A stretch of DNA of 26,652 bases from Bacillota bacterium (lineage in GTDB: Bacteria > Bacillota > Clostridia > Christensenellales > Pumilibacteraceae): assembly GCA_009780875.1 (NCBI GenBank), contig WQZE01000001.1, positions 1-26,652 of the forward strand, read 5' to 3'. Below the pieces are notes generated by a model. That model saw nothing but the letters and a program-made list of their open reading frames with translations. It did not search any database and was not told where the DNA came from. Below, piece after piece: positions 3-18,335 of this stretch (its first letter is position 1; every line of letters begins with the position of its first letter). Both the position numbers and the translations under genes were made by a program.

Positions 3-617
3 GTGCGAGATGCAAAAATGAATCTCACCAAAGCAGAGGAACAACATATGGATGAGATTGCGCTGGTTGGTGAAAGTGTTTTTGAAAATATGGGTTCTGA
101 TTGGGAACAAGCATTTTCACAATTTGTAGATGTTTTGAATGCAGATGAATTGCAAATTATGAACACGATGATAGACAAAATGAATGAGGGCAAAGTGGAT
201 GGGAGCCTGGAAAGAGGTACTTTTAGAATCCATTTGTATGTCCAATTTTCAACGGGATATTTTGTCGGGTATTTGGTCTCTGGATTGATAGTGACTTTTA
301 TTTCTAGTATTGTGGTTTCTATGATAGGTGCAGGGACGGCGGCAGGTGGACCCGTAGGATCCGTTGTAGGCACGATTGTGGGTGCCCTTATTGGTGGGGC
401 AATACAGTCTAGTGTGCAAAATTTGATTGATAGGAGTGGACAAGGCGGATTTTACCGCAAATTGATTGATGAGTCATTTTGGTTTTTGTGGAACGGAAAG
501 TGGGAGAAAAATTTGTTGGACTATTTGATGGATTTGATTAGTTTTGCAGGTGGTGGATTTATTGGTGGGAGTTTTTCAGGTGTGCCAAGTGGACAAGTGA
601 GATTGCAATATGCTTAA
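3..617 (+). CDS. Hypothetical glycine-zipper membrane protein (5' end may lie outside the window)
   Basis: Open frame from the window edge. Long hydrophobic stretch followed by GAGTAAGGPVGSVVGTIVGALIGGA (GxxxG-type repeats). Stop overlaps the next start (ATGCTTAA, 610-617). Confidence 0.7.
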   Translation: MRDAKMNLTKAEEQHMDEIALVGESVFENMGSDWEQAFSQFVDVLNADELQIMNTMIDKMNEGKVDGSLERGTFRIHLYVQFSTGYFVGYLVSGLIVTFISSIVVSMIGAGTAAGGPVGSVVGTIVGALIGGAIQSSVQNLIDRSGQGGFYRKLIDESFWFLWNGKWEKNLLDYLMDLISFAGGGFIGGSFSGVPSGQVRLQYA

Positions 618-1422
618 AAAATTATATTTATTGAGTTTTTCGTTGTTTTTTGTTTTGCCCGTCATTGCAATGTGTATCAAATTATTTTTGAGGGTGCAGA
701 GTCAGTTTGTGCTGATGGATGGGATTGTGCTGGGCGTGTGTTTGGTGGTTTTTGGGCTGTCTAGTTTGGTGGTGCACATACGCAAAAACAAAATAAAAAG
801 AATCAACGAGAAAGTCGTGCCATATTTGTTGGTGAGTGCAGTGGTGCTGTTTTTTGCGGTACGATTGTTGCCAAGACCGTATACGGACGACAAGATTTTT
901 GGTTGGTTTGACAATGTGTGGGATGTGCGGTTGCATTTGTTGTATGGTGTGCTTTTGGGTATTGTGTTGATTCAAGGCATTGCAGCGTTTTTTGCAATCA
1001 AGCAAAGGCAAGTGGCAGTGCGTGTTTTGTGCTTTCCAAAGTCGTACAAATTGCTTGCAGTTGTCGCCTTGATAGATTTTTTTGTATTGTTTGTGACCGC
1101 ACTTGTCAAAACAATGTTGCAAAGGGGTCATGGCACTTTGGATGGGATTGTTTGTGGGGCGTTGGCTGTGATGTACTTGTATTATGTTGGACTTGTGTGG
1201 TTTTTGAATAAAGCACGAGTGCCCAAAAATACTTGGGCAAAGATGGCGATTGTGGTGCCCATAGTTCTTGGATTGTTGTGGGTGGTGGTTTTGGTTTTGC
1301 CTGTTGACTTTTGGGCGGACAAATTGTTGTATCTTGTCTTGGGTGTCTCCAATCTTGGTGCACTAGGCATTTTTTGGCACGGTGTCAGCAAAGGGAACAA
1401 CCAACAAGAGTGTTTTGAGTAG
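610..1422 (+). CDS. Hypothetical polytopic membrane protein (about 7-8 hydrophobic segments)
   Basis: 270-aa ORF of alternating hydrophobic and basic segments, translationally coupled to the upstream ORF. Confidence 0.75.
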   Translation: MLKKLYLLSFSLFFVLPVIAMCIKLFLRVQSQFVLMDGIVLGVCLVVFGLSSLVVHIRKNKIKRINEKVVPYLLVSAVVLFFAVRLLPRPYTDDKIFGWFDNVWDVRLHLLYGVLLGIVLIQGIAAFFAIKQRQVAVRVLCFPKSYKLLAVVALIDFFVLFVTALVKTMLQRGHGTLDGIVCGALAVMYLYYVGLVWFLNKARVPKNTWAKMAIVVPIVLGLLWVVVLVLPVDFWADKLLYLVLGVSNLGALGIFWHGVSKGNNQQECFE

Positions 1423-1575
1423 GATGCCACGGGAGGAATTGAAAGATTGAAACTGGGGGTTTACAAGATTTGCGTGGGATAGATTATTTGAACAATGGGA
1501 TGGAACACTAGGTGTGAAAAAACTTGTCGTTTTGCCGGGTTTGTGGGATGGTTTTTTAGGGTTATTGCGTATACA

Positions 1576-1621
1576 AAAAAATATCTTTCCCCAAAGTTGC
1601 TTTTGGGGAAAGATATTTTTT
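1576..1621. terminator. Bidirectional intrinsic terminator
   Basis: 20-bp perfect stem AAAAAATATCTTTCCCCAAA / TTTGGGGAAAGATATTTTTT with a 6-nt loop, between convergent genes. Confidence 0.9.
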
Positions 1622-1625
1622 AGGA

Positions 1626-2864
1626 TTATTTTTTAGGATTATTTTTTTGCCCGTTTTGGTTGGGCTGTGGTTTGCGTGGTGGTCTTTGGGGTTTGGGGCG
1701 TGGGGTGAACACGGTCATTGGGTAGGGGTTTTCAGCCGGTTCGGGGATGTCTTTTTTGATGGTGCGTTGGATGTCTTTGAGATAGGGGAGCTCGTCATAA
1801 TCGCAAAAAGAAATCGCAAGTCCATCTTTGCCCGCTCTGCCCGTCCTTCCAATGCGGTGCACATAGGACTCGGGCTCGTTGGGGAGTTCGTAATTGAAGA
1901 CAAGTTCAAGGTTGTCAATATCAATGCCCCTGGCCGCAATATCGGTCGCCACCAAAATTTTGAGACGCCCTTGTTTGAATCCTTGCAAAGCACTTTGTCG
2001 TGCTCCTTGGGATTTGTCTCCGTGGATGGCCGCCGAGGGAATATTTTGCTTTTTGAGGCGGTCGCACAACCTGTCTGCACCGTGCTTGGTTCTGCAAAAA
2101 ACCAAGGCTCTTGGGTTGTTGTGTTGTTTGAGCAAATCAATGATGAGGTCTGGCTTGGATGCACGGTCCGTTTTGTAGACAAGTTGGGTGATCTTGTCAA
2201 CCGTACTAGATGGTGGGGTGATGGTGATATTGACGGGGTCACGCAAAAGGGTTTGTGTCATTTTGAGTATCTCAGAGGGCATCGTTGCCGTGAAAAACAA
2301 GGTTTGTTTTTGTGTGGGCAAAAATTCAAGACACCGCTTGACATCGTTGATAAACCCCATATCAAGCATACGGTCCGCCTCATCCAAGACAAATATTTTG
2401 ATTTGCTCAATGGACAATACGCCTTGCCACACCAAATCAAGCAAGCGACCAGGCGTCGCCACCAAGATATCTACGCCTTGTTTGAGTGCCAACTCTTGTG
2501 GGTGTTGGGACACGCCGCCAATCAACAAGCAAAGCCGTTGTTTGGTGTATCTGCCATAAGCACGCAAACTCTCATCAATTTGCAAAGCCAACTCCCGTGT
2601 AGGGGTCAGTATCTAGGCCCTTGCTCTTTTGGCAGGTGGGAGTGCGAGAAGTTCGGGCGAGGGTGGATTGTTGTGCAAGTATTGCAAAATAGGAATTGCA
2701 AATGCCGCTGTCTTGCCAGTGCCGGTTTGGGCACAGCCCAAGACATCACGCCCTTGCAAGGCAGGAGGGATGGCTTGTTGTTGAATGGGGGAGGGGGTTT
2801 CGTACCCCTCTTTTTTGATGGCGTCCAAAATCCTTGGTACAATGTTGAGGTCAATAAAGTTCAT
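1626..2864 (-). pseudogene. DEAD-box RNA helicase (RhlE-like) with one in-frame TAG at 2613-2615
   Basis: One frame carries the Q motif ([14 protein letters not shown]), motif I (AQTGTGKT), then RARA*ILTPTRELALQ (motif Ia), TPGRLLD, DEAD, TAT, HGDKSQGAR and HRIGRTGRAG. The two ORF-track pieces (2613-2915 and 1626-2591) share this frame. Confidence 0.85.
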
Positions 2865-2870
2865 ACTCAC

Positions 2871-2899
2871 ATTATACCAAAAAACAAACAAAAAAGCAA
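2871..2899 (-). promoter_or_regulatory. Sigma-A promoter of the helicase gene (extended -10, probably leaderless mRNA)
   Basis: TTGCTT-17 bp-TATAAT with a TG extension (TGGTATAAT). ATG follows 6 nt after the -10 hexamer; no Shine-Dalgarno. Confidence 0.7.
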
Positions 2900-2923
2900 G
2901 CACAATGCCGTGCAATGTGCTTG
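2890..2923 (-). terminator. Probable intrinsic terminator downstream of the flavin reductase gene
   Basis: Minus strand: CAAGCACA-11 nt-TGTGCTTG stem followed by CTTTTTT. Confidence 0.55.
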
Positions 2924-3049
2924 TGTTTGGATTTATTTCAAAATTGGTTGCGATGAGCCGTCTGATTTTAAACTTGATTATAAAATAATCATAATGTTTA
3001 GCAGGGGCGTTGCATCACAAGATGTTACAAATAATTTAGCACGCAGACA

Positions 3050-3146
3050 TTTTGAATCCCAAAGTCCAACAAATTCTTTTCATTCGGTGATTTTGATACC
3101 CGAAGTCCAACCAAATATACTCATCAGGGGCTTTGAATCCCAAAGT
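3050..3146. repeat. Three imperfect direct repeats with 40-41 bp period
   Basis: TTTGAATCCCAAAGT (3051), TTTGATACCCGAAGT (3092), TTTGAATCCCAAAGT (3132). The first two continue with CCAAC. Confidence 0.7.
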
Positions 3147-3178
3147 TTCTGAATCCAGAATATTATTCAGAAACTTTG
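3141..3178. repeat. 14-bp perfect inverted repeat spanning the flavin reductase stop codon
   Basis: CAAAGTTTCTGAAT (3141-3154), 10-nt spacer, ATTCAGAAACTTTG (3165-3178). Confidence 0.8.
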
Positions 3179-3660
3179 ATTTCTAGAATCTCTCCAATAT
3201 ACATCATATGATAGTCTTGTTTGGGATACAGTTTTTCTATGTGTTCTTTTTGCAAAAAGCAAGCAGGGTCAAAGTATTGTGCCGACATTTTTTTGCACAC
3301 ATACACCTTTTTGGACTCCACAAAGTAGGGGGCATCGTGACTGTACTCCACCGCCATCCCACTGGTCTTGATTTTGTCCTCTCTAAAACCGCTGGCCGCA
3401 CCAAAATACTTGTGCTTGTCGTGGTGTTCATCTTTCAAAAAAGACACCGCAAAAGTATCCACCGCATCCAATATGGTCTTGGTGTGCCGCTGTGGTCTGA
3501 CCACCAAATAAAACACGGGCTTGTTCCACATATAGCCAATACCACCCCAAGCCACGGTCATCGCTCCTGTCTTGTCGCCATCCCTAGCCGACACCACCGC
3601 TCAATCCCGAAACAACTCCTCAAAAAAAGGATTGCTCTCACCAACGCCAATCGTTTTCAT
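3163..3660 (-). pseudogene. Flavin reductase-like (flavoredoxin-type) protein with one in-frame TGA at 3601-3603
   Basis: ATG at 3660 after a G-rich SD gives MKTIGVGESNPFFEELFRD*AVVSARDGDKTGAMTVAWGGIGYMWNKPV...RPQRHT...DYHMMYIGEI. The stop falls where this family typically has Trp (as in NPF..IGKDWMLITAG). Confidence 0.75.
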
Positions 3661-3929
3661 ACCCCCCCCCTAGAACACACCATTGCCACGGTAAAACGGC
3701 AATGATACCGTTATCTCAATGAAATGTACAAATGTGCACTCAACCAATGTATTTTAGAATATCATTTTGTGTCACTTTTGTCAAGTGAATTTGTACATAT
3801 CCGCATCGCATAGGACTGTTTTTGATTCGTATGCAGTAGATCCTATTGCAACCTATGGGCAATGGGATTGATTTATGAAAGTGTGAGGTAGTGAATACGC
3901 TATTACTCTGCGACATAGAAATAAATATG

Positions 3930-3959
3930 TTTTTTGAATAATTTAAATTATTCAAAAAA
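3930..3959. promoter_or_regulatory. Perfect 30-bp palindrome just upstream of the -35 box
   Basis: TTTTTTGAATAATTT|AAATTATTCAAAAAA with no spacer; ends 4 nt before TTGACA. Confidence 0.7.
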
Positions 3960-3963
3960 ACAA

Positions 3964-3992
3964 TTGACAAATTATGTAGAAAGGAGTATAAT
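3964..3992 (+). promoter_or_regulatory. Perfect consensus sigma-A promoter pointing into the island
   Basis: TTGACA (3964-3969)-17 bp-TATAAT (3987-3992). Confidence 0.9.
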
Positions 3993-4020
3993 TATAAAAT
4001 AAAGTGTTTCTTTTTGATAA

Positions 4021-4051
4021 GTACACAACAAAGGATAATTGTATATTATGG
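4021..4051 (+). repeat. Left copy of the 31-bp inverted repeat (contains AAAGGA RBS and ATG at 4048)
   Basis: GTACACAACAAAGGATAATTGTATATTATGG; 31/31 identical to the reverse complement of 8549-8579. Confidence 0.95.
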
Positions 4052-4584
4052 GTTTGTTTTATTTATCTTGCAATCTTAAAATATCTGAACTGGCAAGTTT
4101 TGCTCAAATTATATTTTACTTGCTCACATTCATCTTTACAATGCTACCGATTGGGATAAATCAACTCTTTCTACGGCCAGCACAAGAGGCCGCCCAGCAA
4201 ATAGTAGAGTTAGAAAAAGTGCTGGATAAGATAGCACAGATATACAAGACCCCATCGCTATTATTGCCTGAAATTCAAGCAAAACTTGTGGCAGAAGTTC
4301 AACAAATTTCTGTCCGCTATAATTATCCTAATAAAAAATTTTTACGCTTTATATATCGCACCATATCTCGTAAAATTTTTTGCCAATTTATAAATACATC
4401 TGCATATATCCGAACAAATCTTGAAAGGATATACGGACGCATCTTATCGTGGCAATCCGAGATGGGCAATGATGGGGAAAAATTATACCCATCTAGATTT
4501 AATGCAACAAAAATAATGATTGAAGACATTGCGAACAGAAAAAGATGGGGAAAATATTGTGAAAACAAGCAGAAATTTGAATAA
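4048..4584 (+). CDS. Hypothetical protein with one N-terminal transmembrane segment and a predicted helical region (178 aa)
   Basis: AAAGGA RBS and ATG inside the left repeat. Hydrophobic segment FAQIIFYLLTFIFTMLPIGI. Stop lies 1 nt before the next ATG. Confidence 0.75.
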   Translation: MGLFYLSCNLKISELASFAQIIFYLLTFIFTMLPIGINQLFLRPAQEAAQQIVELEKVLDKIAQIYKTPSLLLPEIQAKLVAEVQQISVRYNYPNKKFLRFIYRTISRKIFCQFINTSAYIRTNLERIYGRILSWQSEMGNDGEKLYPSRFNATKIMIEDIANRKRWGKYCENKQKFE

Positions 4585-4585
4585 A

Positions 4586-6832
4586 ATGACTCCTATTTTT
4601 TGGGTAGGAATCCGTGAGTCTGAAATATCCGACAGTCAACATTTATTTGCTGGGAGTGTTACCTATTATGGCTCTAATCAAAATGGGAATAGGTCTTATT
4701 GCAATGAGCGTGTTTGCATCTATTCAATTTCATCAGAGGCAAAATTGTTTGTTAAAAATAGTTTGTTAGAGATAATTGCCATCCACCCCGATTGTTCTTT
4801 TTTGTGGTATAATTTGGAAAAAGCTTATTGCTATGGTGAAGAGATTTTGAAGAAATCCTTGGGACTCAATAGCCAAGACTTGTTTCAAACATTCAACAAC
4901 AAAATTCAAACTCGCTTTTGGGCTGAACAATTTTGTAGTGTACCTACTTCAAAAAAAATATTGGGCCAAGCGTGTGAGTACAAATACTTACAGTGTCAAA
5001 TGAGCAATGCCAAAGCATTTATTATTCAAGAGGCATTGGGTTCTGGTGGGAAAACTTCCTATTTGATGACTAGCAAGAATCAGGATGTAGTGTATAATCT
5101 TCTCACCCCGCAAAATGAATACTTGGTTTCGGCTTATATTGAACACAGTATATCTGTCAATGTGCACGCACTCATTGCGGACAAGCATATTGCCGTGTCT
5201 AATGGTTCATTGCAGATAATAGAGAATGAAAATAATACTTTTTTATACAAAGGCGGAGATTATATTGCTTTCTCACAACTAGATTTTCCCACACAAAAAA
5301 AAATCAATCAAACTGCTCAAATACTTTGCAAACATTTACAAAGCCAGGGTTATAGAGGCATTGTAGGACTGGACTTTGTAGTAGATGCCAACAATAATGA
5401 ATACTTTATTGAGTTCAATTGTAGGTTTCAATCTTCTACAATGCTTTTAAACACGGCGCTCATAAAAAACAATAAAAGGAGTGTTTTTGAACAACATATC
5501 CAATGTTTTGCAGACGGCTACAAACCAGATTTGACCGTATGCGTAAGTCAAAGTTTTTACAAATACTATTGCAATTTTGATGTTTCAATTTTGCACCCAA
5601 AATTGAAATTATTGGAACAACATAGTTCAACTAAAATTTTTTATAATGGACTCTCTTTGGACTCAACTAAACAAGGACAGTATATGTTTGATGTGACATA
5701 CAATAGGTCTATTTGTGACATATCACCTAATCATACGCTATGGGTAAGCGAAAATATAAAATTTGAAAAAGATGTAGTGCGATTTAATAAGTTGGATGAC
5801 AAGTTGTGGCATAAGGCAAACTTGCTAACGAGAGGAGTTAGAATAGATTTAGAAGAAATAGAAAAAGCAATTGGAAAAATAAAAGAAGGAACTTTTTCTT
5901 CTATTGATATGACTCTTGAAAATGGGCTGTATGTGAATTGTCCTGTCAATATAGAATTTACACAACTAAGTCCTTATCGTGTGCGAGTGATAGCAGGAGT
6001 TTGCACGCTATGTTTCTTTGATACGCCTCTTTGCACAGTGGAGATAGAATCATTAAATCCCCATATTGAATCCAAAGTAACCAAATCAGGTCATCCCATC
6101 AAAAGAATTGCTTATTTGTCTGGGGATAGGATTCGCATCACCTGTGCACCCTCCTGCTGCTTCAAAGACTCTATGCAAGGGTGCAAATTTTGTAACTCCA
6201 CAAGAAAGCCCAAGGACTATTCCTTGTCTGACATTTTAGACACCTTGGAAATTTGCAAACAACATATTCCTTGCCGTCATTATTTGATTGGTGGCGGCAG
6301 TGATGAGAGTGCTTATGGATGGGAAACTATTTGCCTCATTGCAAACAAATTAAAATCCATAACGACAGAAATCAGTTGTATGTGCATCCCCCCATCCGAT
6401 CCAAAGACTCTTGAAAAAATGAAGGCAAACGGAATCACTGATGTGTCTATCAATATAGAAATTTTTGATGAAAACCAAGCCATCGCACATATGCCCGGTA
6501 AGGGGCGTATTGCAAGGGAGCATTATTTTGATACACTCAAAAAAGCCGTATCCATATGGGGCACGGGCAATGTGCGAAGCATCGTGATACTGGGTCTAGA
6601 GCCAATGGGTACTCTGCTTTCCGGCATTGAGAGACTATGTCAACTAGGGGTTCAACCTGTACTGTCGGTGTTCAGACCTACAGCCGGATGTGATTATGAA
6701 AATAATATCTCACCGCCCATAGACTATTTGCTTGATGTGTATCAGCAAATTGAACAAATTTGCATCAAGAACAAGGTTGAACTAGGGCCTCGGTGTCCAA
6801 GGTGCCAGAACAACATCATGATTGTGGAATAA
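4586..6832 (+). CDS. ATP-grasp ligase / radical SAM fusion protein (748 aa)
   Basis: N-terminal half has ATP-grasp motifs (EALGSGGKTSYL; SAYIE; GYRGIVGLDFVV..FIEFNCRFQSST). C-terminal half has a Cys cluster (CAPSCCFKDSMQGCKFC), barrel-like motifs (LIGGG, SINIEIFD, MPGKG, VILGLE, SVFRP) and a terminal CPRC. Confidence 0.8.
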   Translation: MTPIFWVGIRESEISDSQHLFAGSVTYYGSNQNGNRSYCNERVCIYSISSEAKLFVKNSLLEIIAIHPDCSFLWYNLEKAYCYGEEILKKSLGLNSQDLFQTFNNKIQTRFWAEQFCSVPTSKKILGQACEYKYLQCQMSNAKAFIIQEALGSGGKTSYLMTSKNQDVVYNLLTPQNEYLVSAYIEHSISVNVHALIADKHIAVSNGSLQIIENENNTFLYKGGDYIAFSQLDFPTQKKINQTAQILCKHLQSQGYRGIVGLDFVVDANNNEYFIEFNCRFQSSTMLLNTALIKNNKRSVFEQHIQCFADGYKPDLTVCVSQSFYKYYCNFDVSILHPKLKLLEQHSSTKIFYNGLSLDSTKQGQYMFDVTYNRSICDISPNHTLWVSENIKFEKDVVRFNKLDDKLWHKANLLTRGVRIDLEEIEKAIGKIKEGTFSSIDMTLENGLYVNCPVNIEFTQLSPYRVRVIAGVCTLCFFDTPLCTVEIESLNPHIESKVTKSGHPIKRIAYLSGDRIRITCAPSCCFKDSMQGCKFCNSTRKPKDYSLSDILDTLEICKQHIPCRHYLIGGGSDESAYGWETICLIANKLKSITTEISCMCIPPSDPKTLEKMKANGITDVSINIEIFDENQAIAHMPGKGRIAREHYFDTLKKAVSIWGTGNVRSIVILGLEPMGTLLSGIERLCQLGVQPVLSVFRPTAGCDYENNISPPIDYLLDVYQQIEQICIKNKVELGPRCPRCQNNIMIVE

Positions 6833-8552
6833 CAATAAAAGCCAAAGCTGCAATATTCGCACTTGATATGAGTTTTTGATTGGGTGAAAAGGATAGACTT
6901 ATTGATACCGTATTTATTCCTGGCACAAGGGTACTATTTTTTTCTTTTAGGAGAGTTAAAAAAGATTCTACTACAGAATTTGGCTCAGTTAGGTGTTGAT
7001 CGCATTCAGTCGTTTGCATCAAATCACAAGGAGTTTTATCTTTAATTGCAACGGTCTCGGCCGGCTTATTAGGAGTTGGCGTAGGCTTGCTCTTTGTCGC
7101 TTCTTCTTTCATAGCCTCGGTGGACGGCGTGGTCACGATTTGATTTTTTTCCTTTGAGATTCCTTTTATTAAACGCTTATATAGGTATTTTCCATACCCA
7201 ATTACTGTTACTATCGTTACAAGTTGATTTGCAGCTTCCAAAATTTTGGAAATATTGGGTGTAATTACATTCACAAGGATTTCCACAAGTGAGTTATGGC
7301 TAATTTGCAAATAAAATTTATTTTCATTTCCTTGGGTCAATTCGCTAAGTGTTTTGTCTATTTTTTGTTGCAATTGCAATACCTTTTCATAGTGTTTGGA
7401 AGAATCAATATTGGTTTTTATCACCATCTCTAATTGATTGGTGTACAATGGTCTATACAATAAAATATCTTTTATTTCACCAAAATGAATTCTCCATTTA
7501 TTCCGCTCTGCAGAGGTTGTTATATATTGCTTGGCACGCATTTCTAGATGTTCTAGGAGTTCCTTTTCTGTGTGTCCATTGGTGCCAAACAAACCAAGAA
7601 TAGCACCCAAATGACAAAGATGTTTAAAAATTCTAAAATTTTTGACCTGTAAACAGGCAAATAATCCCCGTTTGAGGTACTCATAGGCGATTTGCATTTG
7701 TCCGATAGCATAATACAAGTTGCACAATGGAAAATATTCGTTTTCATATTGATTAAAATGTATAATGAAAGATTTCAAAAGTTTTTTATAGTCCGTTGCA
7801 TCCAAGTAGCGATCTACGGGTCGTTCCCTATTTGCTTGTGGTGCATTCTTTTCATCACTACTTTTTTCAACCTCCATTAAGAATTGAATAGACTCTCCAT
7901 TTGCATTTAGGATTTCTTTCATCAGCCCAATGGTATAGGGGATTTGATATGCCGGTAAATATATTTTGTCAAATATATTCTGATTCCATTCCGTAAAATC
8001 CAAATTGAGATGACACATCTGCACCTCGGTGAATTTGCAAGAATGAAACTTGGTTCCATCCAATGTATTGTGTTCAAATTGACAGTTTTTAAACTCGCAT
8101 TCTTCAAAAAGCGTTTGACTAATGGTGCTTCTATGGAATGAGACATTATAAAATTTTGTTCTAAGAAAATTACATTGACTAAAATTATTCCCTTCAATTC
8201 TCTCGGCAAGGTCATCAAATCCAATCGCACAATCCACAAAATCACAACTTTGAAAATTAGTACCTTTCAGGTAGCAATTGTGAAATTCAACCTTCTGAAA
8301 GTGCGAGCCCGTCAGTGCAGAACAATCAAAAACGCTTTGATTGAATCTCATATCCATTAGTTGTGATCGTTTTAAGTTGAGGTTGATGTATTGATTTTTT
8401 TCGTGGTCTACCCAATTCTTACTCTTATTGTAACGGGTCACAGGATTTCCAAATACGGACAACTCTTGGTTGGAAACCTCTAAATCTACGCTAGTGTATT
8501 TAGGTATGCCTGCTTTTTTGCCCGTTGCTTCTAGCCACTTCCTATCATCCAT
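6816..8552 (-). CDS. Pentapeptide-repeat protein with helical middle region and low-complexity C-terminus (578 aa)
   Basis: Repeating 5-residue periodicity over roughly residues 55-195 (e.g. SQCNF LRTKF YNVSF HRSTI SQTLF EECEF KNCQF EHNTL DGTKF HSCKF). RBS and ATG lie inside the right repeat. Overlaps the 3' end of the fusion gene by 17 nt. Confidence 0.85.
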   Translation of the reverse strand: MDDRKWLEATGKKAGIPKYTSVDLEVSNQELSVFGNPVTRYNKSKNWVDHEKNQYINLNLKRSQLMDMRFNQSVFDCSALTGSHFQKVEFHNCYLKGTNFQSCDFVDCAIGFDDLAERIEGNNFSQCNFLRTKFYNVSFHRSTISQTLFEECEFKNCQFEHNTLDGTKFHSCKFTEVQMCHLNLDFTEWNQNIFDKIYLPAYQIPYTIGLMKEILNANGESIQFLMEVEKSSDEKNAPQANRERPVDRYLDATDYKKLLKSFIIHFNQYENEYFPLCNLYYAIGQMQIAYEYLKRGLFACLQVKNFRIFKHLCHLGAILGLFGTNGHTEKELLEHLEMRAKQYITTSAERNKWRIHFGEIKDILLYRPLYTNQLEMVIKTNIDSSKHYEKVLQLQQKIDKTLSELTQGNENKFYLQISHNSLVEILVNVITPNISKILEAANQLVTIVTVIGYGKYLYKRLIKGISKEKNQIVTTPSTEAMKEEATKSKPTPTPNKPAETVAIKDKTPCDLMQTTECDQHLTEPNSVVESFLTLLKEKNSTLVPGINTVSISLSFSPNQKLISSANIAALAFIVIPQS

Positions 8553-8579
8553 AATATACAATTATCCTTTGTTGTGTAC
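8549..8579 (-). repeat. Right copy of the 31-bp inverted repeat (contains RBS and ATG at 8552)
   Basis: Plus-strand CCATAATATACAATTATCCTTTGTTGTGTAC is the exact reverse complement of 4021-4051. Confidence 0.95.
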
Positions 8580-8626
8580 AGTGTGCGATTTTTTATAAAT
8601 TTGGTTGTTCTTGTCTTTTGGTTTGG

Positions 8627-8655
8627 TTGCACTTTTTTTTTATTTGTGGTATAAT
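8627..8655 (+). promoter_or_regulatory. Sigma-A promoter of the P-type ATPase operon
   Basis: TTGCAC-17 bp (including T9)-TATAAT with a TG extension. Confidence 0.75.
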
Positions 8656-8768
8656 TATGGGAGAGTATTTTGATTTTGTGTTGTTGGGGAGGTGGAGTTT
8701 TGGGATGGGGAGTGGGGCACAAAGTTTGGGGGTGGATTTTGGATATTGGGCAGAATGATATTAGTTTG

Positions 8769-11294
8769 ATGGAGCCGCAGGCGTTGGAGGGCAACATTAT
8801 TACGGTTGAGCAGATGCAAAAGGCTCGGCAGAGAAAACGCAAGGGTCCCAAGTTGACGCAGGCGGATATGTCGCAGGCGGAGCGGTATGTTGTGGAGTAC
8901 AAGGATGGGTTGAGTACGGAGCAGGTTGCCAAACGCAATGAGGATGGATATATCAACTTTGCGAGTGACACGGGGGGCAAGACCTATGGGCGGATTTTGT
9001 TCAACAACCTTGTGACCTTTTTTAACTTTTTGACATTTGGTGTCGCTATCGCTTTGATAATAGCGGGGGCTGGTTTTGCACAAATGTTTTTTATGGTCAT
9101 TATTTTGGTCAACTTGGCGATTGGTATTTGGCAAGAGTTCAAAGCCAAGGCGGCGGTCGCCAAGTTGACGCTTGTGTCGGCACCTACGGCGATGGTGGTG
9201 CGGAATGGGAGCAAGGTGTCTATTCCCATCTCAGAGGTCGTGCTGGACGATATCATTTATTTGGAGCAAGGCAAACAAATCCCCTCGGATGCAAGGGTGA
9301 TACACGGGGAGTTGGAGGTCAACGAGAGTATGTTGACGGGCGAAAGTGTACCCATTGCCAAAAAGAATGGTAGTACGATTTTGGGCGGTAGTTTTGTGAC
9401 AGCGGGCAAATGCTATGCACGGGTGGAACGAGTGGGCAGTGCCAACTATGTACAGACTTTGTCCTCACACGCCAAAAGATATGTCAAGCCCAAAAGTGAG
9501 ATTCAAGACAGTGTGCGTCGCATCATCAAAGTGGTGTCCATCATTTTGGTGCCCATCTCTACTGTGTTGATTGTGTATAGTTTTCTCAACAACGGCAGTT
9601 GGCAAGCCACTATTTTTAGTGTTTCTGGGTCCATTATCGGAATGATACCCGCCGGAATGTTTTTGTTGACCTCTTTGGCTTTGTTTGTGGGGCAAGCAAG
9701 GCTGGCACGCAAGAATGTCTTGGTGCAAGATTTGTATTGCATAGAGATGCTTGCAAGGGTCAATATTTTGTGTCTTGACAAAACGGGAACCATCACGGAT
9801 GGTACGATGCAGGTCAATGAAGTTGTGGAGGTCGGCACACCCAAAGAGGGTGCAAAGGTTGCAGAACTTGTGTCCGCCATCATCACAGCGACGGGCGACA
9901 ATAACCAAACCGCTTTGGCACTCGCCAACAAGTTTGGATATGCAACCAAAGACAACCCACACAAACCCAAAAAGGTGTTGCCTTTTAGCAGCACTCGCAA
10001 AATGAGTGCGGTGGAGTTTGAGGGGCAAGGCACCTACTTTTTGGGAGCACCCGAGTTTGTGTTGCAAGATATGGGATCCAAGGTGGAAGAAATTGTCAAT
10101 GATAGAGCCAAACAGGGTTTGCGTGTAATGTGTCTTGCACACAGTATGGGCGAAATAAAGGAAGAGAAACTGCCCGGCACACGGCGTGCACTTGCACTCA
10201 TTGCCATTGAGGACCATATCCGAGAAGATGCAATCACCACCATCAAGCATTTTAGGGAGAATGGAGTCAAAGTCAAGGTCATCTCAGGAGACAATCCTTT
10301 GACCGTGAGTGAGGTCGCCAAAAGAGTGGGCATTGACAAAGCGGACTTGTGGGTATCCTTGGACGGGTTTGATGAGAGCCAGGTCATCTCGGTTGCTGAC
10401 AAGTACACCGTGTTTGGGCGTGTGACACCCGAACAAAAACAATGGCTTGTCAAGGCGATGAAATTGGATCGCAACAATACCGTGGCGATGACGGGCGACG
10501 GGGTCAATGATATCTTGGCAATGAAAGAGTCGGATTGTGCCATCTCGGTGGCAAGTGGCTCTGAGGCTGCAAGGAATGTGTCCCACTTGGTTTTGATGGA
10601 TAGCAATTTTAATTCTATGCCAAGTGTGGTGCAAGAGGGCAGGCGAGTCATCAACAATATTGAAAAATCTTCGGCACTGTTTTTGATGAAGACTTTGATG
10701 ACCATCTTGTTGACCGCCTTGGTGCTTATCAACATTGTGTTGCCTCCTGAGATTATTGGATGGATGCGTGAGTATCCGTTGCAGACAAACAACTTGTTGA
10801 TGTTTGAACTTTTTGTGGTGGGCGTGCCGAGTATGTTCTTGGCGTTGCAATCCAACAAGGAAATCATCAAAGGCAAATTTTTGTACAATGTATTGTCGCA
10901 AAGCGTGCCGGGCGGACTTGCCTTGTTTGCCAATATTGTGGCACTCTATATATTTAGACACAGACTTGGACTGGAAAGTGATCAACAAATCCTCAGTATG
11001 ATTGTCATCTCTATGATTTTTACGGGACTTATGGTGTTGATTAGGATTGCTAGCAAGCCCTCCTTTAATACTTTTAGGGTGGTGCTCGTGGTGGTGGTCT
11101 TTGGACTCACGAGTGCGAGCGTGTTTGCTTTGGGTCCCATCTTTGGCATAGACTACAAGCCAGCATTTTTGGCGAGCAAGGATGACCCCAATGTCCTCAA
11201 TATGACACAGACTTTATTTTTGTTTACGACCACGCTTTTGGCGTATGGAGTGGTGGGTGTGCTTACCACGGCTCTTAGCAAAGTGAAACTTTGA
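8769..11294 (+). CDS. Cation-transporting P-type ATPase (HAD-IC, CtpE-like); start assigned to ATG 8769
   Basis: TGES, phosphorylation motif DKTGTIT, ISGDNP, MTGDGVND, and multiple transmembrane segments. M4 reads IPAGM. Confidence 0.93.
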   Translation: MEPQALEGNIITVEQMQKARQRKRKGPKLTQADMSQAERYVVEYKDGLSTEQVAKRNEDGYINFASDTGGKTYGRILFNNLVTFFNFLTFGVAIALIIAGAGFAQMFFMVIILVNLAIGIWQEFKAKAAVAKLTLVSAPTAMVVRNGSKVSIPISEVVLDDIIYLEQGKQIPSDARVIHGELEVNESMLTGESVPIAKKNGSTILGGSFVTAGKCYARVERVGSANYVQTLSSHAKRYVKPKSEIQDSVRRIIKVVSIILVPISTVLIVYSFLNNGSWQATIFSVSGSIIGMIPAGMFLLTSLALFVGQARLARKNVLVQDLYCIEMLARVNILCLDKTGTITDGTMQVNEVVEVGTPKEGAKVAELVSAIITATGDNNQTALALANKFGYATKDNPHKPKKVLPFSSTRKMSAVEFEGQGTYFLGAPEFVLQDMGSKVEEIVNDRAKQGLRVMCLAHSMGEIKEEKLPGTRRALALIAIEDHIREDAITTIKHFRENGVKVKVISGDNPLTVSEVAKRVGIDKADLWVSLDGFDESQVISVADKYTVFGRVTPEQKQWLVKAMKLDRNNTVAMTGDGVNDILAMKESDCAISVASGSEAARNVSHLVLMDSNFNSMPSVVQEGRRVINNIEKSSALFLMKTLMTILLTALVLINIVLPPEIIGWMREYPLQTNNLLMFELFVVGVPSMFLALQSNKEIIKGKFLYNVLSQSVPGGLALFANIVALYIFRHRLGLESDQQILSMIVISMIFTGLMVLIRIASKPSFNTFRVVLVVVVFGLTSASVFALGPIFGIDYKPAFLASKDDPNVLNMTQTLFLFTTTLLAYGVVGVLTTALSKVKL

Positions 11295-11316
11295 GCACGA
11301 AATTTTGGAGAAAAAG

Positions 11317-11979
11317 ATGAAAACATTGATAATCAATGCACAGCCAGATTTTGGCAATCCTATGCATTTTACCAACAAAATGCAAGAAAAATTTGCAAGT
11401 TTGTTTGGGGGCAAGTTTGACAAAAGTCAATTGACCGTCCTCAACTTGTATGATACAAAAATCCCGCAGATTGACAGCGAGCAATTGCTCAGTGTGTGGA
11501 AAAAACAACAGACAGGGGAGGCGTTGACGAGTGCCGAAAAAACGATTGAAAAGCAACACACTCATTTGTTGGAGCAGTTTTTGGAGCATCACCGTGTGGT
11601 CATTGTGATGCCACTACACAACTTTAATATCACGGCAAGAATGAAAGATTATATAGACAATTTGATGATTGCTAGAAAAACATTTAGGTACACAGGACAA
11701 GCAGACAAGGACGGCAAAGTGTCCGCAGGGCTGTTGACAGATGACCGCAAAGCCTTGCTTTTGTATTCTAGTGGTTCCGTTTTTACCAAAGACGATTTTT
11801 ACAAGGACTTGGATTTTGCACCCAAATATTTGCGTACAATGTTAGTAGAGATGATGGGATTTGACAATATGGACATTGTGAGAGTGGAGGGGACCTCACG
11901 GTCCGGGGCAGACAAAGAGGCAATGCTTGCAAAGGCGATGGAGGCGTTGTCCACGGCTTTTGAAAAAATGTATGGTTAG
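11317..11979 (+). CDS. azoR: FMN-dependent NADH-azoreductase-like flavodoxin-fold protein
   Basis: GGAG RBS. MKTLIINAQP, MPLHNFNITARMKDYIDNLMIARKTFRYT, SSGSVF, YLRTMLVEMMGF. Confidence 0.8.
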   Translation: MKTLIINAQPDFGNPMHFTNKMQEKFASLFGGKFDKSQLTVLNLYDTKIPQIDSEQLLSVWKKQQTGEALTSAEKTIEKQHTHLLEQFLEHHRVVIVMPLHNFNITARMKDYIDNLMIARKTFRYTGQADKDGKVSAGLLTDDRKALLLYSSGSVFTKDDFYKDLDFAPKYLRTMLVEMMGFDNMDIVRVEGTSRSGADKEAMLAKAMEALSTAFEKMYG

Positions 11980-12007
11980 GCTCATAGAGAATGAGTAGAG
12001 GGGTAAT

Positions 12008-13039
12008 ATGAAATATCAAGATACGATAATGTTTAGAGAGATTGGCGAGCAACCGACCGTGTTGGAGGGACTTGTCAAAACAAATCACGAGGTGCTTGCC
12101 AAAATTGCTGAGCGGGTCAAAAAGGGCGAGATTGACAATATCAGCATTGGGGCACGAGGGAGCAGCCTGCACGCTAGTATGTATTTTGCTCATCTTGTGG
12201 AGATATTCACCACGCTTCCGGTCAAATTTTTGTCGCCTAGTGTTTTTACGAGTTATGGCGGCAAACTTGAAATCAAGAGGAGTCTTGTGATTGGGGTGTC
12301 CCAATCGGGCAAAGCCGCCGATGTCTTGGAGTGCTTGCGACACGCCAAAAAAGATGGCAGTATTACGGTGGCGGTCACCAATCATTTGGACAGCCCGCTT
12401 GCCAAAGAGGCGGATTATCATTTGTATCTCAACGCACAAAAAGAGGTCAGCGTGGCGGCGACCAAGACGGTGACCGCACAAATGTATGTGCTCTTGCTGT
12501 TGGCACAATCCCTTTGTGCAGACCCACTGCTCATCAACGCACCGCAAATGATTGTGAGCGGTATCCAGAGCGTGCTCAAAAATGCGGGCAATATTGCGGA
12601 TTATGCCAAAAAGTTTGTGGACACCAAAGATATGTTTGTGCTTGCAAGAGGGCTCAACAAATCCGTTGCGTTGGAGAGTGGACTCAAACTATCGGAGACC
12701 ACCTATATCAAGGCATTGGCGTATTCTGTCAGTGATTTTTGGCACGGGCCCTACGCAATGATTGACAAGAATGCGACCGTGATTGCCTATGCGCCCAAAG
12801 GTCAAAGCCAAAAAGATGTATTGGAGATGGTGCAAAAGTGCAAAGGGGACGGTGCAAAAGTGACCGTGATTGGCACCAAAGACTGTACGCCGGACATTGT
12901 GATTCCTGAGGGCACGGACATAGAGACGCCTTTTTACAATTTGGTGACGATGCAAATTTTGGCGTGTGCTTTGTCTACCCACAAAGGTATCTCTGTGGAC
13001 ACACCGAGAGGGCTCAACAAGGTGACCATCACCAAGTAG
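12008..13039 (+). CDS. Double-SIS sugar-phosphate isomerase/deaminase (GlmS isomerase-domain-like, no glutaminase domain)
   Basis: EIGEQP, ARGSS, GVSQSG, EVSVAATKT, ARG..VALESGLKLSETTY, DFWHGP, C-terminal LNKVT. Confidence 0.88.
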   Translation: MKYQDTIMFREIGEQPTVLEGLVKTNHEVLAKIAERVKKGEIDNISIGARGSSLHASMYFAHLVEIFTTLPVKFLSPSVFTSYGGKLEIKRSLVIGVSQSGKAADVLECLRHAKKDGSITVAVTNHLDSPLAKEADYHLYLNAQKEVSVAATKTVTAQMYVLLLLAQSLCADPLLINAPQMIVSGIQSVLKNAGNIADYAKKFVDTKDMFVLARGLNKSVALESGLKLSETTYIKALAYSVSDFWHGPYAMIDKNATVIAYAPKGQSQKDVLEMVQKCKGDGAKVTVIGTKDCTPDIVIPEGTDIETPFYNLVTMQILACALSTHKGISVDTPRGLNKVTITK

Positions 13040-13125
13040 TGCAAAAAATATTTTATTTTGCGAACCAAACCATAGCAATTGCCGCATTTGTATGTTATAC
13101 TTGTATTGTGAGCAACCAAAAAATC

Positions 13126-13159
13126 AATGAGTGACCTCCAAGAGGTGACTCATTTTTTT
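13126..13159 (+). terminator. Intrinsic terminator-like hairpin upstream of the holin-like gene
   Basis: AATGAGT-G-ACCTC-CAA-GAGGT-G-ACTCATT followed by a T run. Confidence 0.75.
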
Positions 13160-13183
13160 ATCGGGAGCCAAAAGGAGAGAGAT

Positions 13184-13477
13184 ATGGAAATAATGCAAAT
13201 TCTGGGTGTGGCTAGCGTGCCTTTTGTGGTGGCAGTGGTGCACGAACTTTTGAGGGTGTACAAGATGATTGTGGATAAAAAAGTGCCACAGGAAAGCAAA
13301 GAGGCGTTTGTCAAATTGATACCGCTTTTTGCGGGAGTCTTGGGATTGTTGATAGGCGTGGGTGCGTACTTTGTGGGCGTGCTTGGGGACAGTTTGCCAA
13401 AGGCAATTTTGGTAGGGATTGCAAGCGGACTGGGTGCCACAGGGATTGACCAAGTAGCCAAACAATTGGGCAAATAA
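13184..13477 (+). CDS. Phage-holin-like small membrane protein (97 aa)
   Basis: AAGGAG RBS. Three hydrophobic segments. C-terminal GIASGLGATGIDQVAKQL resembles small Firmicute holins. Confidence 0.65.
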   Translation: MEIMQILGVASVPFVVAVVHELLRVYKMIVDKKVPQESKEAFVKLIPLFAGVLGLLIGVGAYFVGVLGDSLPKAILVGIASGLGATGIDQVAKQLGK

Positions 13478-13514
13478 AATACCTCGGCACACGAGCACAA
13501 AAGGGCATACTGCA

Positions 13515-14057
13515 TCAAGCAATATGCTCTTTTGTTTTTTGAGGAGCCAGTGCGAGTGCAACCACGCTTGCCAAGGCAAAGGCAAGTTTGTTGATGGTTC
13601 CTAGGCGTATGGTGTTGGAGAGCGCATTTTTGCAAAGTTTGTCTGAGATGATGCCCGTCAAAGATAGGTCTCCACAAGCAGGCAATTGCTTGCCATCGAC
13701 CGAGCCTGGGTGAATGGGCCCATAAATAATTTTGCACTTGCCAACTTTTTGTGTGTTTCCAATCATACTATCTATCGCAATTACTAGACTATTTTTGTGA
13801 TTTGTGGTAATATATTGGTAGGTTTCTTTCAAATTGAGTGCGTGCACGGGGTGGTCAAGGTCTCCATAGACAAAGCACGGGGCATCAAAAGCGTGTTTGA
13901 GATAGTGACCACACATAGGGCCCAGACTGTCTCCCACAAGTTTGTCGCTCCCAATACACAGCACCACAAGGGGGCGTTTGTACAAAAGCAGTCTCAACAG
14001 ATTGCTGGCGGAGTGAGCCAGGGAGGGGTCAAAATAGAATCCTTTTTTGTTGTTCAT
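13515..14057 (-). CDS. yyaC: Spore protease YyaC-like (DUF1256)
   Basis: LCIGSDKLVGDSLGPMCG, VYGDLDHPVHALNL, IAIDS, PG..G.QLPACGD..LTGI. Confidence 0.88.
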   Translation of the reverse strand: MNNKKGFYFDPSLAHSASNLLRLLLYKRPLVVLCIGSDKLVGDSLGPMCGHYLKHAFDAPCFVYGDLDHPVHALNLKETYQYITTNHKNSLVIAIDSMIGNTQKVGKCKIIYGPIHPGSVDGKQLPACGDLSLTGIISDKLCKNALSNTIRLGTINKLAFALASVVALALAPQKTKEHIA

Positions 14058-14109
14058 ACAAATGAGTGTTGACAAAAAGGCAAAGGGCTATACTAGCAAG
14101 GAGAGATGT

Positions 14110-14787
14110 ATGTATACAGAGACGCTCAAACAATTGGGTGTAACAGAGGAGCAAATGCAAAAGTTTGAAACTTTTTTTGATTTGCTCCTTGCGTACAATG
14201 CACACACCAATTTGACCGCCATTGTGGACAAAGAACAAGTCTTTGTCAAGCACTTTGCGGACAGTCTATTGCCAAGGGCGTTGCTAAGCCAGAATGCAAG
14301 CGTGGTGGATATTGGGTGTGGTGCCGGTTTTCCCTCTCTGCCTCTTGCAATTGTTAGGTCAGACTTGCAGTTTTTGTTGGTGGATAGTGTCGCCAAAAAA
14401 CTCAAATTTGTACAGCAAGTGGTGGATGTGTTGCACCTGCAAAATGTGCAGGTATTGCACAGCCGGGCGGAGGATATCACAAAAAGAGAGCACTTTGACT
14501 TTTGCGTAGCAAGGGCGGTTGCCGGCTTGCCAACGCTAATGGAGTATTGTGTGCCTTTTGTCAAAGTAGGTGGGCAAGTGCTTGCGTACAAGTCCAACGA
14601 GATTGAAGAGGAGTTGGCAGACGCAAACAAAGCAATCACCCTTTTGGGAGGGGTATTGCAAGAGGTGGTGCCACTAGACTTGCCTGGCACAGACATTGTA
14701 CGCAAGATTGTGATTGTGCAAAAGATAAAAAAAACAGAGAGCAAATATCCAAGGAGTGGCAACAAGCCACGAACCAATCCATTGTGA
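14110..14787 (+). CDS. rsmG: 16S rRNA m7G527 methyltransferase
   Basis: AAGGAG RBS. NLTAI, KHFADSL, DIGCGAGFP, DSVAKK, SRAE, ARAVA, C-terminal YPR.G.KP..NPL. Confidence 0.95.
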   Translation: MYTETLKQLGVTEEQMQKFETFFDLLLAYNAHTNLTAIVDKEQVFVKHFADSLLPRALLSQNASVVDIGCGAGFPSLPLAIVRSDLQFLLVDSVAKKLKFVQQVVDVLHLQNVQVLHSRAEDITKREHFDFCVARAVAGLPTLMEYCVPFVKVGGQVLAYKSNEIEEELADANKAITLLGGVLQEVVPLDLPGTDIVRKIVIVQKIKKTESKYPRSGNKPRTNPL

Positions 14788-14800
14788 GTAGGGCAATACC

Positions 14801-17800: not shown

Positions 17801-18175
17801 TCGGCACACATACCGCACGGTTATCTTGCGGACGAACAAAGCAGACTCAATTTGTATAGCCGAGTGGCAAGGTTGCAATCACAAAAAGAGCGACAAGATT
17901 TGCTGAGTGAGATGCTGGATATCTATGGCACGCCCCCCAAACAAGCACAAAATCTGCTTTTGATTGGTTTGGCCAAAAACCTTGCACAAAAACAAAGTGC
18001 TGTCGGAGTCGTCATCAAAAAAAATGTCATTGGTATCAAGTTTGAAAAAATCAAAGACATACCCAAGTCCTTGCAAGGCGCCTTGCAAAAAGGGCAGTGC
18101 GTGTTGGACCCACAAACCGCTATGGTCAAGTGGGGCAGTGTAGGAGCAATGTTGGCGATGTTGTCGCCCGCATAA
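14801..18175 (+). CDS. mfd: Transcription-repair coupling factor
   Basis: RGDILDIW, CarD-like RID (GDFVVHHIHGVGVY), DRLLCGDVGYGKTEVA, DEEQRFGV, MSATPIPRTL, QLRGRVGR, RDLEIRGAGN, TRCF-like C-terminus. Confidence 0.97.
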   Translation: MQSIKTNTIDKIGNLGQDVESLLAEIRRKKQVSAVLATPKKYLIASTLSSLDVVVYVCNDYFAAGVALEQLSAILGEQAVAYVPHRDDVLTAHKGQSRVADFDRLKAFDKIAKGATLVVTTVAALTQRCVAGGKFVAKTLCVKTGQELPKDFLARLIEMGYQKNDQVEERGQFSTRGDILDIWSPHLEPIRIDLFGDTVESIKHFDSETKRSTRSLDTVCVIPCSEWMGSERVDKYLAQLAKYKECTMAQQLCVDLECGRIDTAMSILWGLDQAGGDTQDFATVPQFVEYFLQGKKLTVVYDDCKKCSDALEIAVTEHNQRAKQMILANNLVPTLVALVETPFAFGDHQLAYHQVLSQNRIFEPKALHNFGQTSVQNYSHDYRVLLEDLLQWQNSEYQVLVCLDEAQKRADFSKWVTDNGLKNFAGLQVVDAGLHYGDHFFGAKKIILGKFDLYKKAFAKKIKRAKQSVFTQPDLGDFVVHHIHGVGVYEGVQKQEFVEGAARDYVVIRYRDNDLLYVPVENMDTLARFVSKEEPHLHRLGGQEFAKVKDRVRASVKRLAFDLVALYANRQKASGHKYESDQPLYQEFENQFEFEPTPDQKSATQDALQDLRQGKVMDRLLCGDVGYGKTEVAMRAAFRVLLEGHQVAFVSPTTILAKQHYLTVKKRMERFGVRVASMSRLDGAKQIANTVQQVGQGAIDIVVGTHRALSKDLVFKNLGLLVLDEEQRFGVGDKEKIKQLKNTVGVLSMSATPIPRTLHMSLSGIRDISIIDTPPTNRIPVQTYVAEYTESLVVDAIGRELGRGGSVFIVYNRVEHMEPFACGIQNLVPSAKVIFAHGQMDKQKLEDAILSFGEGRHNVLVASTIIENGIDMPNANTIIVVGAERLGLAQMYQLRGRVGRSDRQAYAYFTFDDGKTLSETASKRLRAISEFTDLGAGYKLAMRDLEIRGAGNVLGREQHGHMDKVGYDLYCRLLQQAVEEQRDGVVKSSDHFEIKVSTDLSAHIPHGYLADEQSRLNLYSRVARLQSQKERQDLLSEMLDIYGTPPKQAQNLLLIGLAKNLAQKQSAVGVVIKKNVIGIKFEKIKDIPKSLQGALQKGQCVLDPQTAMVKWGSVGAMLAMLSPA

Positions 18176-18206
18176 TCTTTCAAAAAACCAAGTTTCACAA
18201 AAACGC

Positions 18207-18235
18207 TTTACAAAAATTGGAAATTTTGGTATAAT
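18207..18235 (+). promoter_or_regulatory. Sigma-A promoter of the PrsA-like lipoprotein gene
   Basis: TTTACA-17 bp-TATAAT with a TG extension. Confidence 0.8.
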
Positions 18236-18244
18236 AAAGAGTAA

Positions 18245-18259
18245 CAAACAATTTGTTTG
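18245..18259. promoter_or_regulatory. Operator-like 7-1-7 palindrome just downstream of the predicted transcription start
   Basis: CAAACAA-T-TTGTTTG. Confidence 0.45.
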
Positions 18260-18335
18260 GAGATTGTGCCATTTGTCTTGTATGCAATGCTTTGCAGTTG
18301 GCAAAAATAGGTAGAGTAGACTTGGCTGAGGTTTT

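Follow-up and report, generated by a model that had tools for sequence, protein, structure and literature searches.

A candidate whole-cassette inversion switch: dif-like inverted sites, Xer-like recombinases and a one-sided promoter around an ATP-grasp/radical-SAM and pentapeptide-repeat module

A gene cassette of about 4.5 kb lies in a 26,652-nt stretch of DNA, hereafter termed the window (contig WQZE01000001.1, positions 1 to 26,652 of the forward strand; assembly GCA_009780875.1), of a Bacillota bacterium from the family Pumilibacteraceae. The cassette is bracketed by inverted sites that resemble the dif sites of Xer recombinases, and it is probably flipped as a whole by an Xer-like recombinase, so that a fixed promoter outside it would read either an enzyme operon or the gene of a pentapeptide-repeat protein. 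Cassette flipping is supported at the level of the family to which this locus belongs, and the inversion itself was seen in a relative. The window locus may well still flip. The metagenome-assembled genome (MAG) that contains the window was obtained from a termite-gut metagenome and comprises 1.32 Mb in 226 contigs at 77% completeness. The elements of the proposed switch are as follows (protein lengths in amino acids, aa):

3964-3992, plus strand: predicted outside promoter TTGACA-17-TATAAT with 12/12 consensus matches, directed toward the cassette, with 28 nt between the end of its -10 box and the left arm
4021-4051, plus strand: left arm, with the core GGATAAT-TGTAT-ATTATGG at 4033-4051, AAAGGA at 4030-4035 and, at 4048-4050, the ATG of the first cassette gene
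4048-4584, plus strand: gene for a predicted membrane protein of 178 aa without a family match
4559-6832, plus strand: gene for a fusion enzyme of 757 aa that joins an ATP-grasp and a variant radical-SAM half (Pfam ATP-grasp_3 and Radical_SAM), with an alternative TTG start at 4520
6816-8552, minus strand: gene for a pentapeptide-repeat protein of 578 aa (Pfam Pentapeptide families), which begins within the right arm and converges on the enzyme gene
8549-8579, minus strand: right arm, with the core at 8549-8567 and the ATG at 8552-8550, both on the minus strand

The two arms are complementary at 31/31 positions and differ from the first base beyond the repeat on either side. Both contain AAAGGA and the ATG that opens an inward-facing open reading frame (ORF), and each arm ends with this ATG plus one base. 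A preliminary description of this stretch, made from its letters alone, had reported the exact inverted copies, their AAAGGA and their ATGs together with the three-gene content of the cassette, and sequence comparison and gene calls upheld all of these features. The arms form the longest and the sole perfect long inverted repeat of the window, in which an exact repeat of 31 nt has a chance expectation of about 1e-10 (arithmetic estimate for 26.6 kb). A search for further copies of the 31-mer, which the preliminary description had proposed, returned these two occurrences only in the whole MAG. The G+C content is about 35% between the arms and about 46% in the flanks.

The preliminary description had also raised the possibility that the repeat is an assembly artefact, which might consist of a 31-mer shared by chance or of a chimeric join. 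Thirty-one is a common assembler k and equals the k-mer size of the Logan assemblies, whose contigs break at both arms. However, two independent MEGAHIT k141 contigs with 99.99-100% identity to the window cross the junctions: L003 corresponds to window positions 20-8339 with one mismatch and covers the left junction, while L197 matches 8321-18771 exactly and covers the right one. Because both junctions are crossed by these contigs, the arms are confirmed as a real structure of the locus. Sequencing depth is even, at about 6x, over flanks and cassette, and the same architecture recurs in scores of unrelated assemblies, which makes the probability of an artefact practically negligible.

The genes between the arms form a module with a broad distribution. 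A word-seeded search with the pentapeptide protein returned only two distant relatives, and homologues of the fusion enzyme, about 32-35% identical, are each followed by a convergent pentapeptide-repeat gene. When five aligned fusion proteins were used for a pattern scan, the ATP-grasp/radical-SAM plus pentapeptide module was located at at least 145 metagenome loci and at least 149 loci in species-representative genomes. Its conservation amounts to about 30-35% protein identity, and the carriers include Lachnospiraceae, Oscillospiraceae, Bacilli, Spirochaetaceae, Bacteroidales, Chitinispirillales, Coriobacteriaceae and some Proteobacteria. Cultured carriers include Bacterium C-53 and, from the gut Lachnospiraceae, Faecalicatena orotica DSM 1287 and Lachnospiraceae bacterium 10-1 and 28-4. 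In the constant core, a fusion gene (about 760 aa) and a pentapeptide gene (about 500 aa) always stand tail-to-tail, as they do in the window. Among 70 lineages, an overlap of the two genes was found in 34, and a further 26 have a gap of at most 50 nt; the median gap is 2.5 nt. Accessory genes before either core gene are variable.

Inverted repeats flank the module even in relatives whose proteins are only about one third identical. A motif-bearing inverted repeat was found around the module at 40 of the 52 loci with a full-length fusion gene and sufficient flanking DNA, and a systematic scan recovered 86 loci at which an inverted repeat with a common core, 16 nt or longer, surrounds the module. 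The core consensus of 64 distinct sites, read from outside to inside, is AAGGATAAT-N5-ATTATC. The window core fits this consensus; its module is bracketed by inverted repeats of the form GGATAAY-N5-RTTATC in a variant in which the final C is replaced by G, as in 12% of family sites, and it is this exchange that creates the ATG. In the core, two GGATAA half-sites in inverted orientation flank an asymmetric centre of 7 bp. Parsed accordingly, the window core reads GGATAA-TTGTATA-TTATGG (4033-4051) and has the layout of a tyrosine-recombinase core site, in which an asymmetric overlap region of 6-8 bp separates inverted half-sites. It resembles the dif sites of Xer recombinases, of which the E. 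coli version reads ..CATAA-TGTATA-TTATG... The dif-like core that had been noticed in the window arm was borne out by the family consensus.

Family arms measure 16-142 nt. Within a genome they are almost always 100% identical, asymmetric spacer included, and between genomes they differ. Judged from these sequences, such apparent concerted evolution is what is expected of mutually recombining sites and not of two operator copies. At two loci (L006 and L013), the arms are located upstream of each gene's own ribosome-binding site, so the conserved AAAGGA belongs to the site. A double use of this motif as Shine-Dalgarno sequence was found only in the sub-lineage of the window, which consists of the window and L008. 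The position of ribosome-binding site and ATG inside the repeat, which had been part of the original observation, thus holds for this sub-lineage; elsewhere the core is conserved and each gene has its own ribosome-binding site further in. The arms are best viewed as putative dif-like core sites for an Xer-like tyrosine recombinase, with binding and cleavage predicted from the linkage to recombinase genes.

Some family sites are more elaborate. Long arms of 54-124 nt with two or three core-like dyads are present in L046:6834-6949, L115:5025-5148, L139:251-312 and L104:5894-5947, which may point to more than one possible crossover site or to accessory binding sites. In addition, the MAG of the window has a second pair of like sites on contigs C53 (L180:6413-6892) and C210 (L181:2600-2705). 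Both contigs end 9-31 nt outside a common TACTAGATAATTTTTAATTAT with the core GATAAT-TTTTA-ATTAT[C/G], and a gene starts directly after it. On C53, the genes at the site code for a 145-aa protein, a NUDIX-domain protein and a guanylate-kinase-like P-loop protein, and on C210 for a 412-aa guanylate-kinase-like protein. The two contigs may represent a second invertible cassette with other cargo that was split at its arms by the assembler.

A candidate enzyme is encoded next to most of the cassettes. In L006 and L012, a Phage_integrase-family gene was found directly outside an arm, and recombinase homologues (45-60% identity) lie no more than 700 nt from an arm in 32 of 43 dereplicated lineages (74%) whose flanks reach 1.5 kb or more on either side. 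The fusion end carries the recombinase gene in 17 of these 32 and the pentapeptide end in 15; 20 of the genes read toward the cassette and 12 away from it. They match Phage_integrase with E values of about 1e-40, and their best NCBIfam models are XerC/XerD, with 194-232 bits at cut-offs of about 330. Because even these best scores fall far below the curated cut-offs, the arm-adjacent enzymes are classified by sequence as Xer-like recombinases distinct from the housekeeping pair. The window is one of the 11 lineages without an adjacent recombinase, which keep perfect arms of up to 142 nt. A search of the MAG for recombinases, also proposed in the preliminary description, identified one Xer-like enzyme on contig C136, which is 43% identical to the L006 enzyme and has a score profile like those of the cassette-linked ones. 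This or another recombinase would presumably act in trans at the window locus.

All loci were oriented by the fusion gene, and an inversion is then expected to appear as swapped and reverse-complemented flanks. This comparison of orientation among relatives, likewise suggested at the outset, revealed one human-gut metagenome lineage with the cassette in both orientations (L070 versus L066, L068, L071 and L098). In L070, a segment of 4,160 bp between 22-nt arms is collinear with and 99-99.7% identical to its counterparts in L071, L066 and L098, and either flank aligns, reverse-complemented, with the opposite flank of those loci; the alignments meet inside the arms. A Clostridiales MAG contig of 4,160 bp (L136) corresponds to the segment of this lineage from arm to arm. 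Across the family, 11 contigs extend exactly from arm to arm and 8 more have an end at an arm, with arms that fall well short of the final k used by the assemblers. These breaks are what mixed orientations in the reads would produce and are supportive of inversion, not proof. The cassette family would also explain the recurrent orphan contigs of about 4 kb in metagenome assemblies.

The promoter is one-sided. At the window locus, the promoter at 3964-3992 scores 12.5, and the best inward promoter-like site beyond the right arm reaches 8.5 on the same scale; promoter scoring found no comparable inward promoter on the right side. Both the perfect promoter 28 nt outside the left arm and the lack of a good counterpart had been stated before and were confirmed. 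Inward sigma-70-like sites within 60 nt of an arm were then scored in 56 dereplicated lineages, with strong sites defined by a score of at least 10. A strong predicted promoter stands by one arm, and only one, in 22 lineages; no lineage has one by each arm, and 34 have none. Strong predicted promoters occurred in 19.6% of flanks, compared to 3.0% in a control shifted 300 nt outward (Fisher p = 1.7e-4). Because the strong promoter was found at the fusion end in 10 lineages and at the pentapeptide end in 12, different genomes appear to have been caught in either state, as a switch predicts.

In the proposed mechanism, an Xer-like tyrosine recombinase would pair the inverted cores and exchange strands in the 7-bp centre. 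As the sites are inverted, recombination would flip the 4.5-kb cassette and the promoter at 3964-3992 would stay outside. In the assembled state, the mRNA from this promoter would contain the whole left arm in a leader of about 48 nt and would start the 178-aa gene as well as, owing to the overlap, the enzyme gene. Because the convergent genes overlap tail-to-tail and no terminator is located between them, the transcript would continue as antisense RNA across the pentapeptide gene, which itself appears to be without a good promoter of its own. In the flipped state, the same promoter, 5' untranslated region (UTR), Shine-Dalgarno sequence and ATG would drive the pentapeptide protein, while the enzyme operon would be covered by antisense RNA. 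The effect of flipping on expression is a prediction from this arrangement. A wider proposal, for and against which we give equal weight, is that the cassettes constitute a large switch class of at least 150 gut and environmental species, with cargo that differs at other docks, in which a dedicated Xer-like recombinase acting on dif-like sites would connect one promoter, and in some lineages one shared leader and start codon, to an enzyme or to its non-homologous partner, antisense transcription would silence the other and the two halves would be mutually exclusive in single cells. Such mutual exclusion, if true, would follow a two-state logic unlike that of ON/OFF invertons and of variant shuffling. 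Mutants locked in one phase would offer an experimental handle on the uncharacterised enzyme/pentapeptide pair.

The claim that a whole cassette inverts under a fixed promoter is thus sustained for the family by its sites, its recombinases, the L070 inversion and the promoter at one arm, while flipping was not observed at the window locus. Several observations weigh against the proposed switch, most of them at this locus. The 26.6-kb window encodes no recombinase, as noted before, and so deviates from the mycoplasma vpma and vsp loci (see below), which have one alongside. The C136 recombinase gene is found in a housekeeping setting beside rplM and rpsI and adjoins no site-bearing contig end; in a tree, the enzyme is placed among the cassette-linked ones, a placement that is unsafe from long branches. 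An attempt to tie this gene to a cassette was abandoned, as there was no overlap with site-bearing contig ends. The window locus was assembled in a single orientation at about 6x depth with k141 contigs that are unbroken through both arms, and one orientation dominates in the sample behind the k141 assembly. The Logan contigs (k=31) break inside both 31-nt arms whatever the orientation and are thus silent on it. In the nearest lineage by site sequence (L008-L011 and L072), there is no adjacent recombinase and all five contigs show one orientation. Finally, both orientations were directly seen in one lineage only. The window locus is contained in the public runs SRR5829604 and SRR10512953 and in the reads behind ENA assembly ERZ27257292. 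The contigs of the two runs agree and their depths are nearly equal, so a single data set was probably deposited twice and the runs do not represent independent samples.

These observations would also fit a cassette of the invertible family that arrived by horizontal transfer, has no working cognate recombinase and is fixed with the enzyme operon on. The missing neighbour stands out against the 74% of lineages that have one, the single orientation was met in two assemblies without a contig break at the arms, and the related L008 lineage is uniform in its five contigs. Such a fixed remnant is nevertheless considered unlikely: the arms still match at 31/31 positions, including 12 nt outside the core, and other lineages without an adjacent recombinase keep perfect arms as well, some of them 142 nt long. 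Moreover, the MAG has an Xer-like recombinase with the NCBIfam score profile of the cassette-linked enzymes and a second like-site pair at contig ends, and it is only 77% complete. A further explanation regards the cassette as an Xer-dependent mobile module, as proposed for the pdif modules of Acinetobacter, with sites that serve mainly for transfer and inversion as a non-regulatory by-product. It draws on the G+C content of the cassette, which is below that of its flanks, on the scattering of the family over phyla in unrelated genomic settings and on the dif-like sites and Xer-like recombinases themselves, and it is compatible with a switch. Yet it appears distinctly improbable in view of a strong promoter at exactly one arm, far above the control and never at both, and of gene sets that always face inward and start directly after the arms, often with a shared leader and shared first codons. 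The recombinase is also dedicated and adjacent rather than the housekeeping pair.

A static role of the repeat was considered as well, in which it would be an operator or a translation-initiation region of two convergent units and no rearrangement would take place. The arm does carry the Shine-Dalgarno sequence and ATG of both genes, and its core is a dyad, as in many repressor operators. This explanation is very improbable, given that inversion was directly seen in a relative, that recombinases adjoin the arms and that the arms of other members are located upstream of each gene's own ribosome-binding site. Operator selection alone would be insufficient to keep the spacer and up to 142 nt identical within genomes and different between them. 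In addition, the leader has no Rfam family match and folds no better than shuffled sequence.

The proposed switch has parallels in several known systems. In its geometry, with tail-to-tail gene sets, an outside promoter and, in most family members, a recombinase next to the segment, the cassette is like the G segment of phage Mu. The Mu G segment and the C segment of phage P1 comprise about 3 kb between short inverted repeats and contain two tail-to-tail gene sets, with an outside promoter and an adjacent recombinase gene outside. They are inverted by Gin and Cin, two serine recombinases dependent on an enhancer and on Fis, and the alternatives are paralogous tail-fibre variants with a constant 5' part. 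By contrast, the cassettes are associated with a tyrosine Xer-like recombinase, dif-like sites and unrelated cargo genes; in the window, the two halves belong to different Pfam families and are not paralogues.

In the vpma locus of Mycoplasma agalactiae and the vsp locus of M. bovis, inversions by the tyrosine recombinases Xer1 and Mbr, respectively, connect a silent gene to a unique promoter (PMC2268961). The sites are located in the 5' UTR just upstream of the start codons, at positions -1 to -72, and the recombinase is encoded beside the locus (PMC2268961). Similarly, a consensus scan of the window locus found a single outside promoter, and the window arms are inverted sites at the start of the alternative genes; the adjacent Xer-like tyrosine recombinase is shared by most of the family and not by the window locus. 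Unlike vpma and vsp, which shuffle several paralogous surface lipoprotein genes, the cassette is one segment with two non-homologous, tail-to-tail halves, and its family spans many phyla. The preliminary description had regarded complete genes rotating under a fixed promoter as a departure from most described switches; the arrangement is not without precedent, since the mycoplasma vpma and vsp loci (PMC2268961), as well as the Mu G segment, are precedents. The cassettes would, however, place dif-like sites and Xer-like enzymes in the service of gene regulation outside the mycoplasmas.

The pdif modules of Acinetobacter are reported to be discrete modules that are bounded by Xer-type dif-like sites in various contexts; they form arrays on Rep_3 plasmids, are assumed to rely on host XerC/XerD and are regarded as mobile units rather than expression switches (PMC6449649, PMC13141974). 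The window cassette does not have this setting of a Rep_3 plasmid array with XerC/XerD sites in alternating orientation; it stands alone, and the MAG contains two copies of its site sequence only. In contrast to the pdif modules, the cassette is single and chromosomal, most members have a dedicated recombinase and the promoter is fixed by one arm. Invertons such as E. coli fimS, C. difficile flgB and cwpV and the Bacteroides PSA promoter are reported as a few hundred bases with a promoter or terminator that flip (PMC5386303, PMC10939037). The cassettes have in common with them the short inverted repeats, a recombinase and, as proposed, reversible population heterogeneity, but the part that turns in the cassettes consists of complete genes, 2.6-5.8 kb in length, while the promoter stays in place.

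Most known programmed inversions are small promoter flips or reshuffle paralogous gene segments, whereas whole unrelated genes would turn in these cassettes. They fall into a blind spot of inverton surveys, which seek short invertible regions or homologous coding segments. In the survey of Milman et al. (2023), pentapeptide-repeat proteins were depleted beside predicted inversion targets, and the module is not in its list (PMC9881135). No description of the module or the switch was found in the literature, and the cassette family is widespread and apparently undescribed.

Two further elements border the arms of the window:

3930-3959, no strand assigned: AT-only perfect palindrome of 30 nt (T6-GAATAATTT/AAATTATTC-A6), directly upstream of the -35 box
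8643-8654, plus strand: extended -10 box TGGTATAAT, which belongs to the outward-facing P-type ATPase gene

The palindrome folds at -9.7 kcal/mol (z = -4.5), and its inner part is similar to the core dyad with a shorter spacer. It could represent an insulating hairpin, an operator or an accessory site for the recombinase.

The fusion enzyme gene overlaps the 178-aa gene at its 5' end and the pentapeptide gene by 17 nt at its 3' end. The radical-SAM half of the enzyme matches the NCBIfam model variant_rSAM NF045502 with 168 bits (cut-off 125), and an alignment of five homologues of about 33% identity revealed the invariant cysteines C533, C542 and C545, which form a CX8CX2C motif and not the canonical CX3CX2C. 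The 178-aa protein occupies the slot that small DUF4760 proteins fill in some relatives, to which it has no detectable similarity. For the pentapeptide protein, a weak likeness to HalA was recorded (33 bits, cut-off 250), a protein atlas returned generic pentapeptide clusters only and a look-up of the exact product found no record. None of the three cassette proteins matched the PADLOC defence-system models. The idea of a defence-island cargo was dropped after a Pfam tally of 50 flanking proteins from 13 lineages, which was miscellaneous and not defence-enriched. The cassette lies between chromosomal housekeeping genes coding for a flavin reductase and a P-type ATPase. A transposon was rejected as an explanation, as the cassette contains no transposase and its arm edges show no target-site duplication. 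A synteny comparison covered 30 relatives, all from other genera; the genes upstream of the ATPase were not conserved and the borders of an island were undefinable.

Variation in gene content was observed among the family members. A short cassette with 2.6-2.8 kb between the arms was found at L006, L094, L166, L178 and L103, where the pentapeptide gene has as its partner a stand-alone ATP-grasp gene of about 330-400 aa without the radical-SAM half. A 54-aa ORF is located between these two genes at L006 (L006:2534-2698). Genes of an Agr-type quorum-sensing system (AgrB, GHKL histidine kinase and LytTR response regulator) adjoin the cassette at L021:8301-8882 and at 3-4 other loci, too few for an association. 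In the termite-gut relative L008 (L008:7952-8001), the ATG of the left arm opens only a mini-ORF of 15 codons (MDDR...), whose first residues match the pentapeptide protein of the other arm. Because its stop codon is located 2 nt before the ATG of the fusion gene, the shared start codon seems to be used there via translational coupling.

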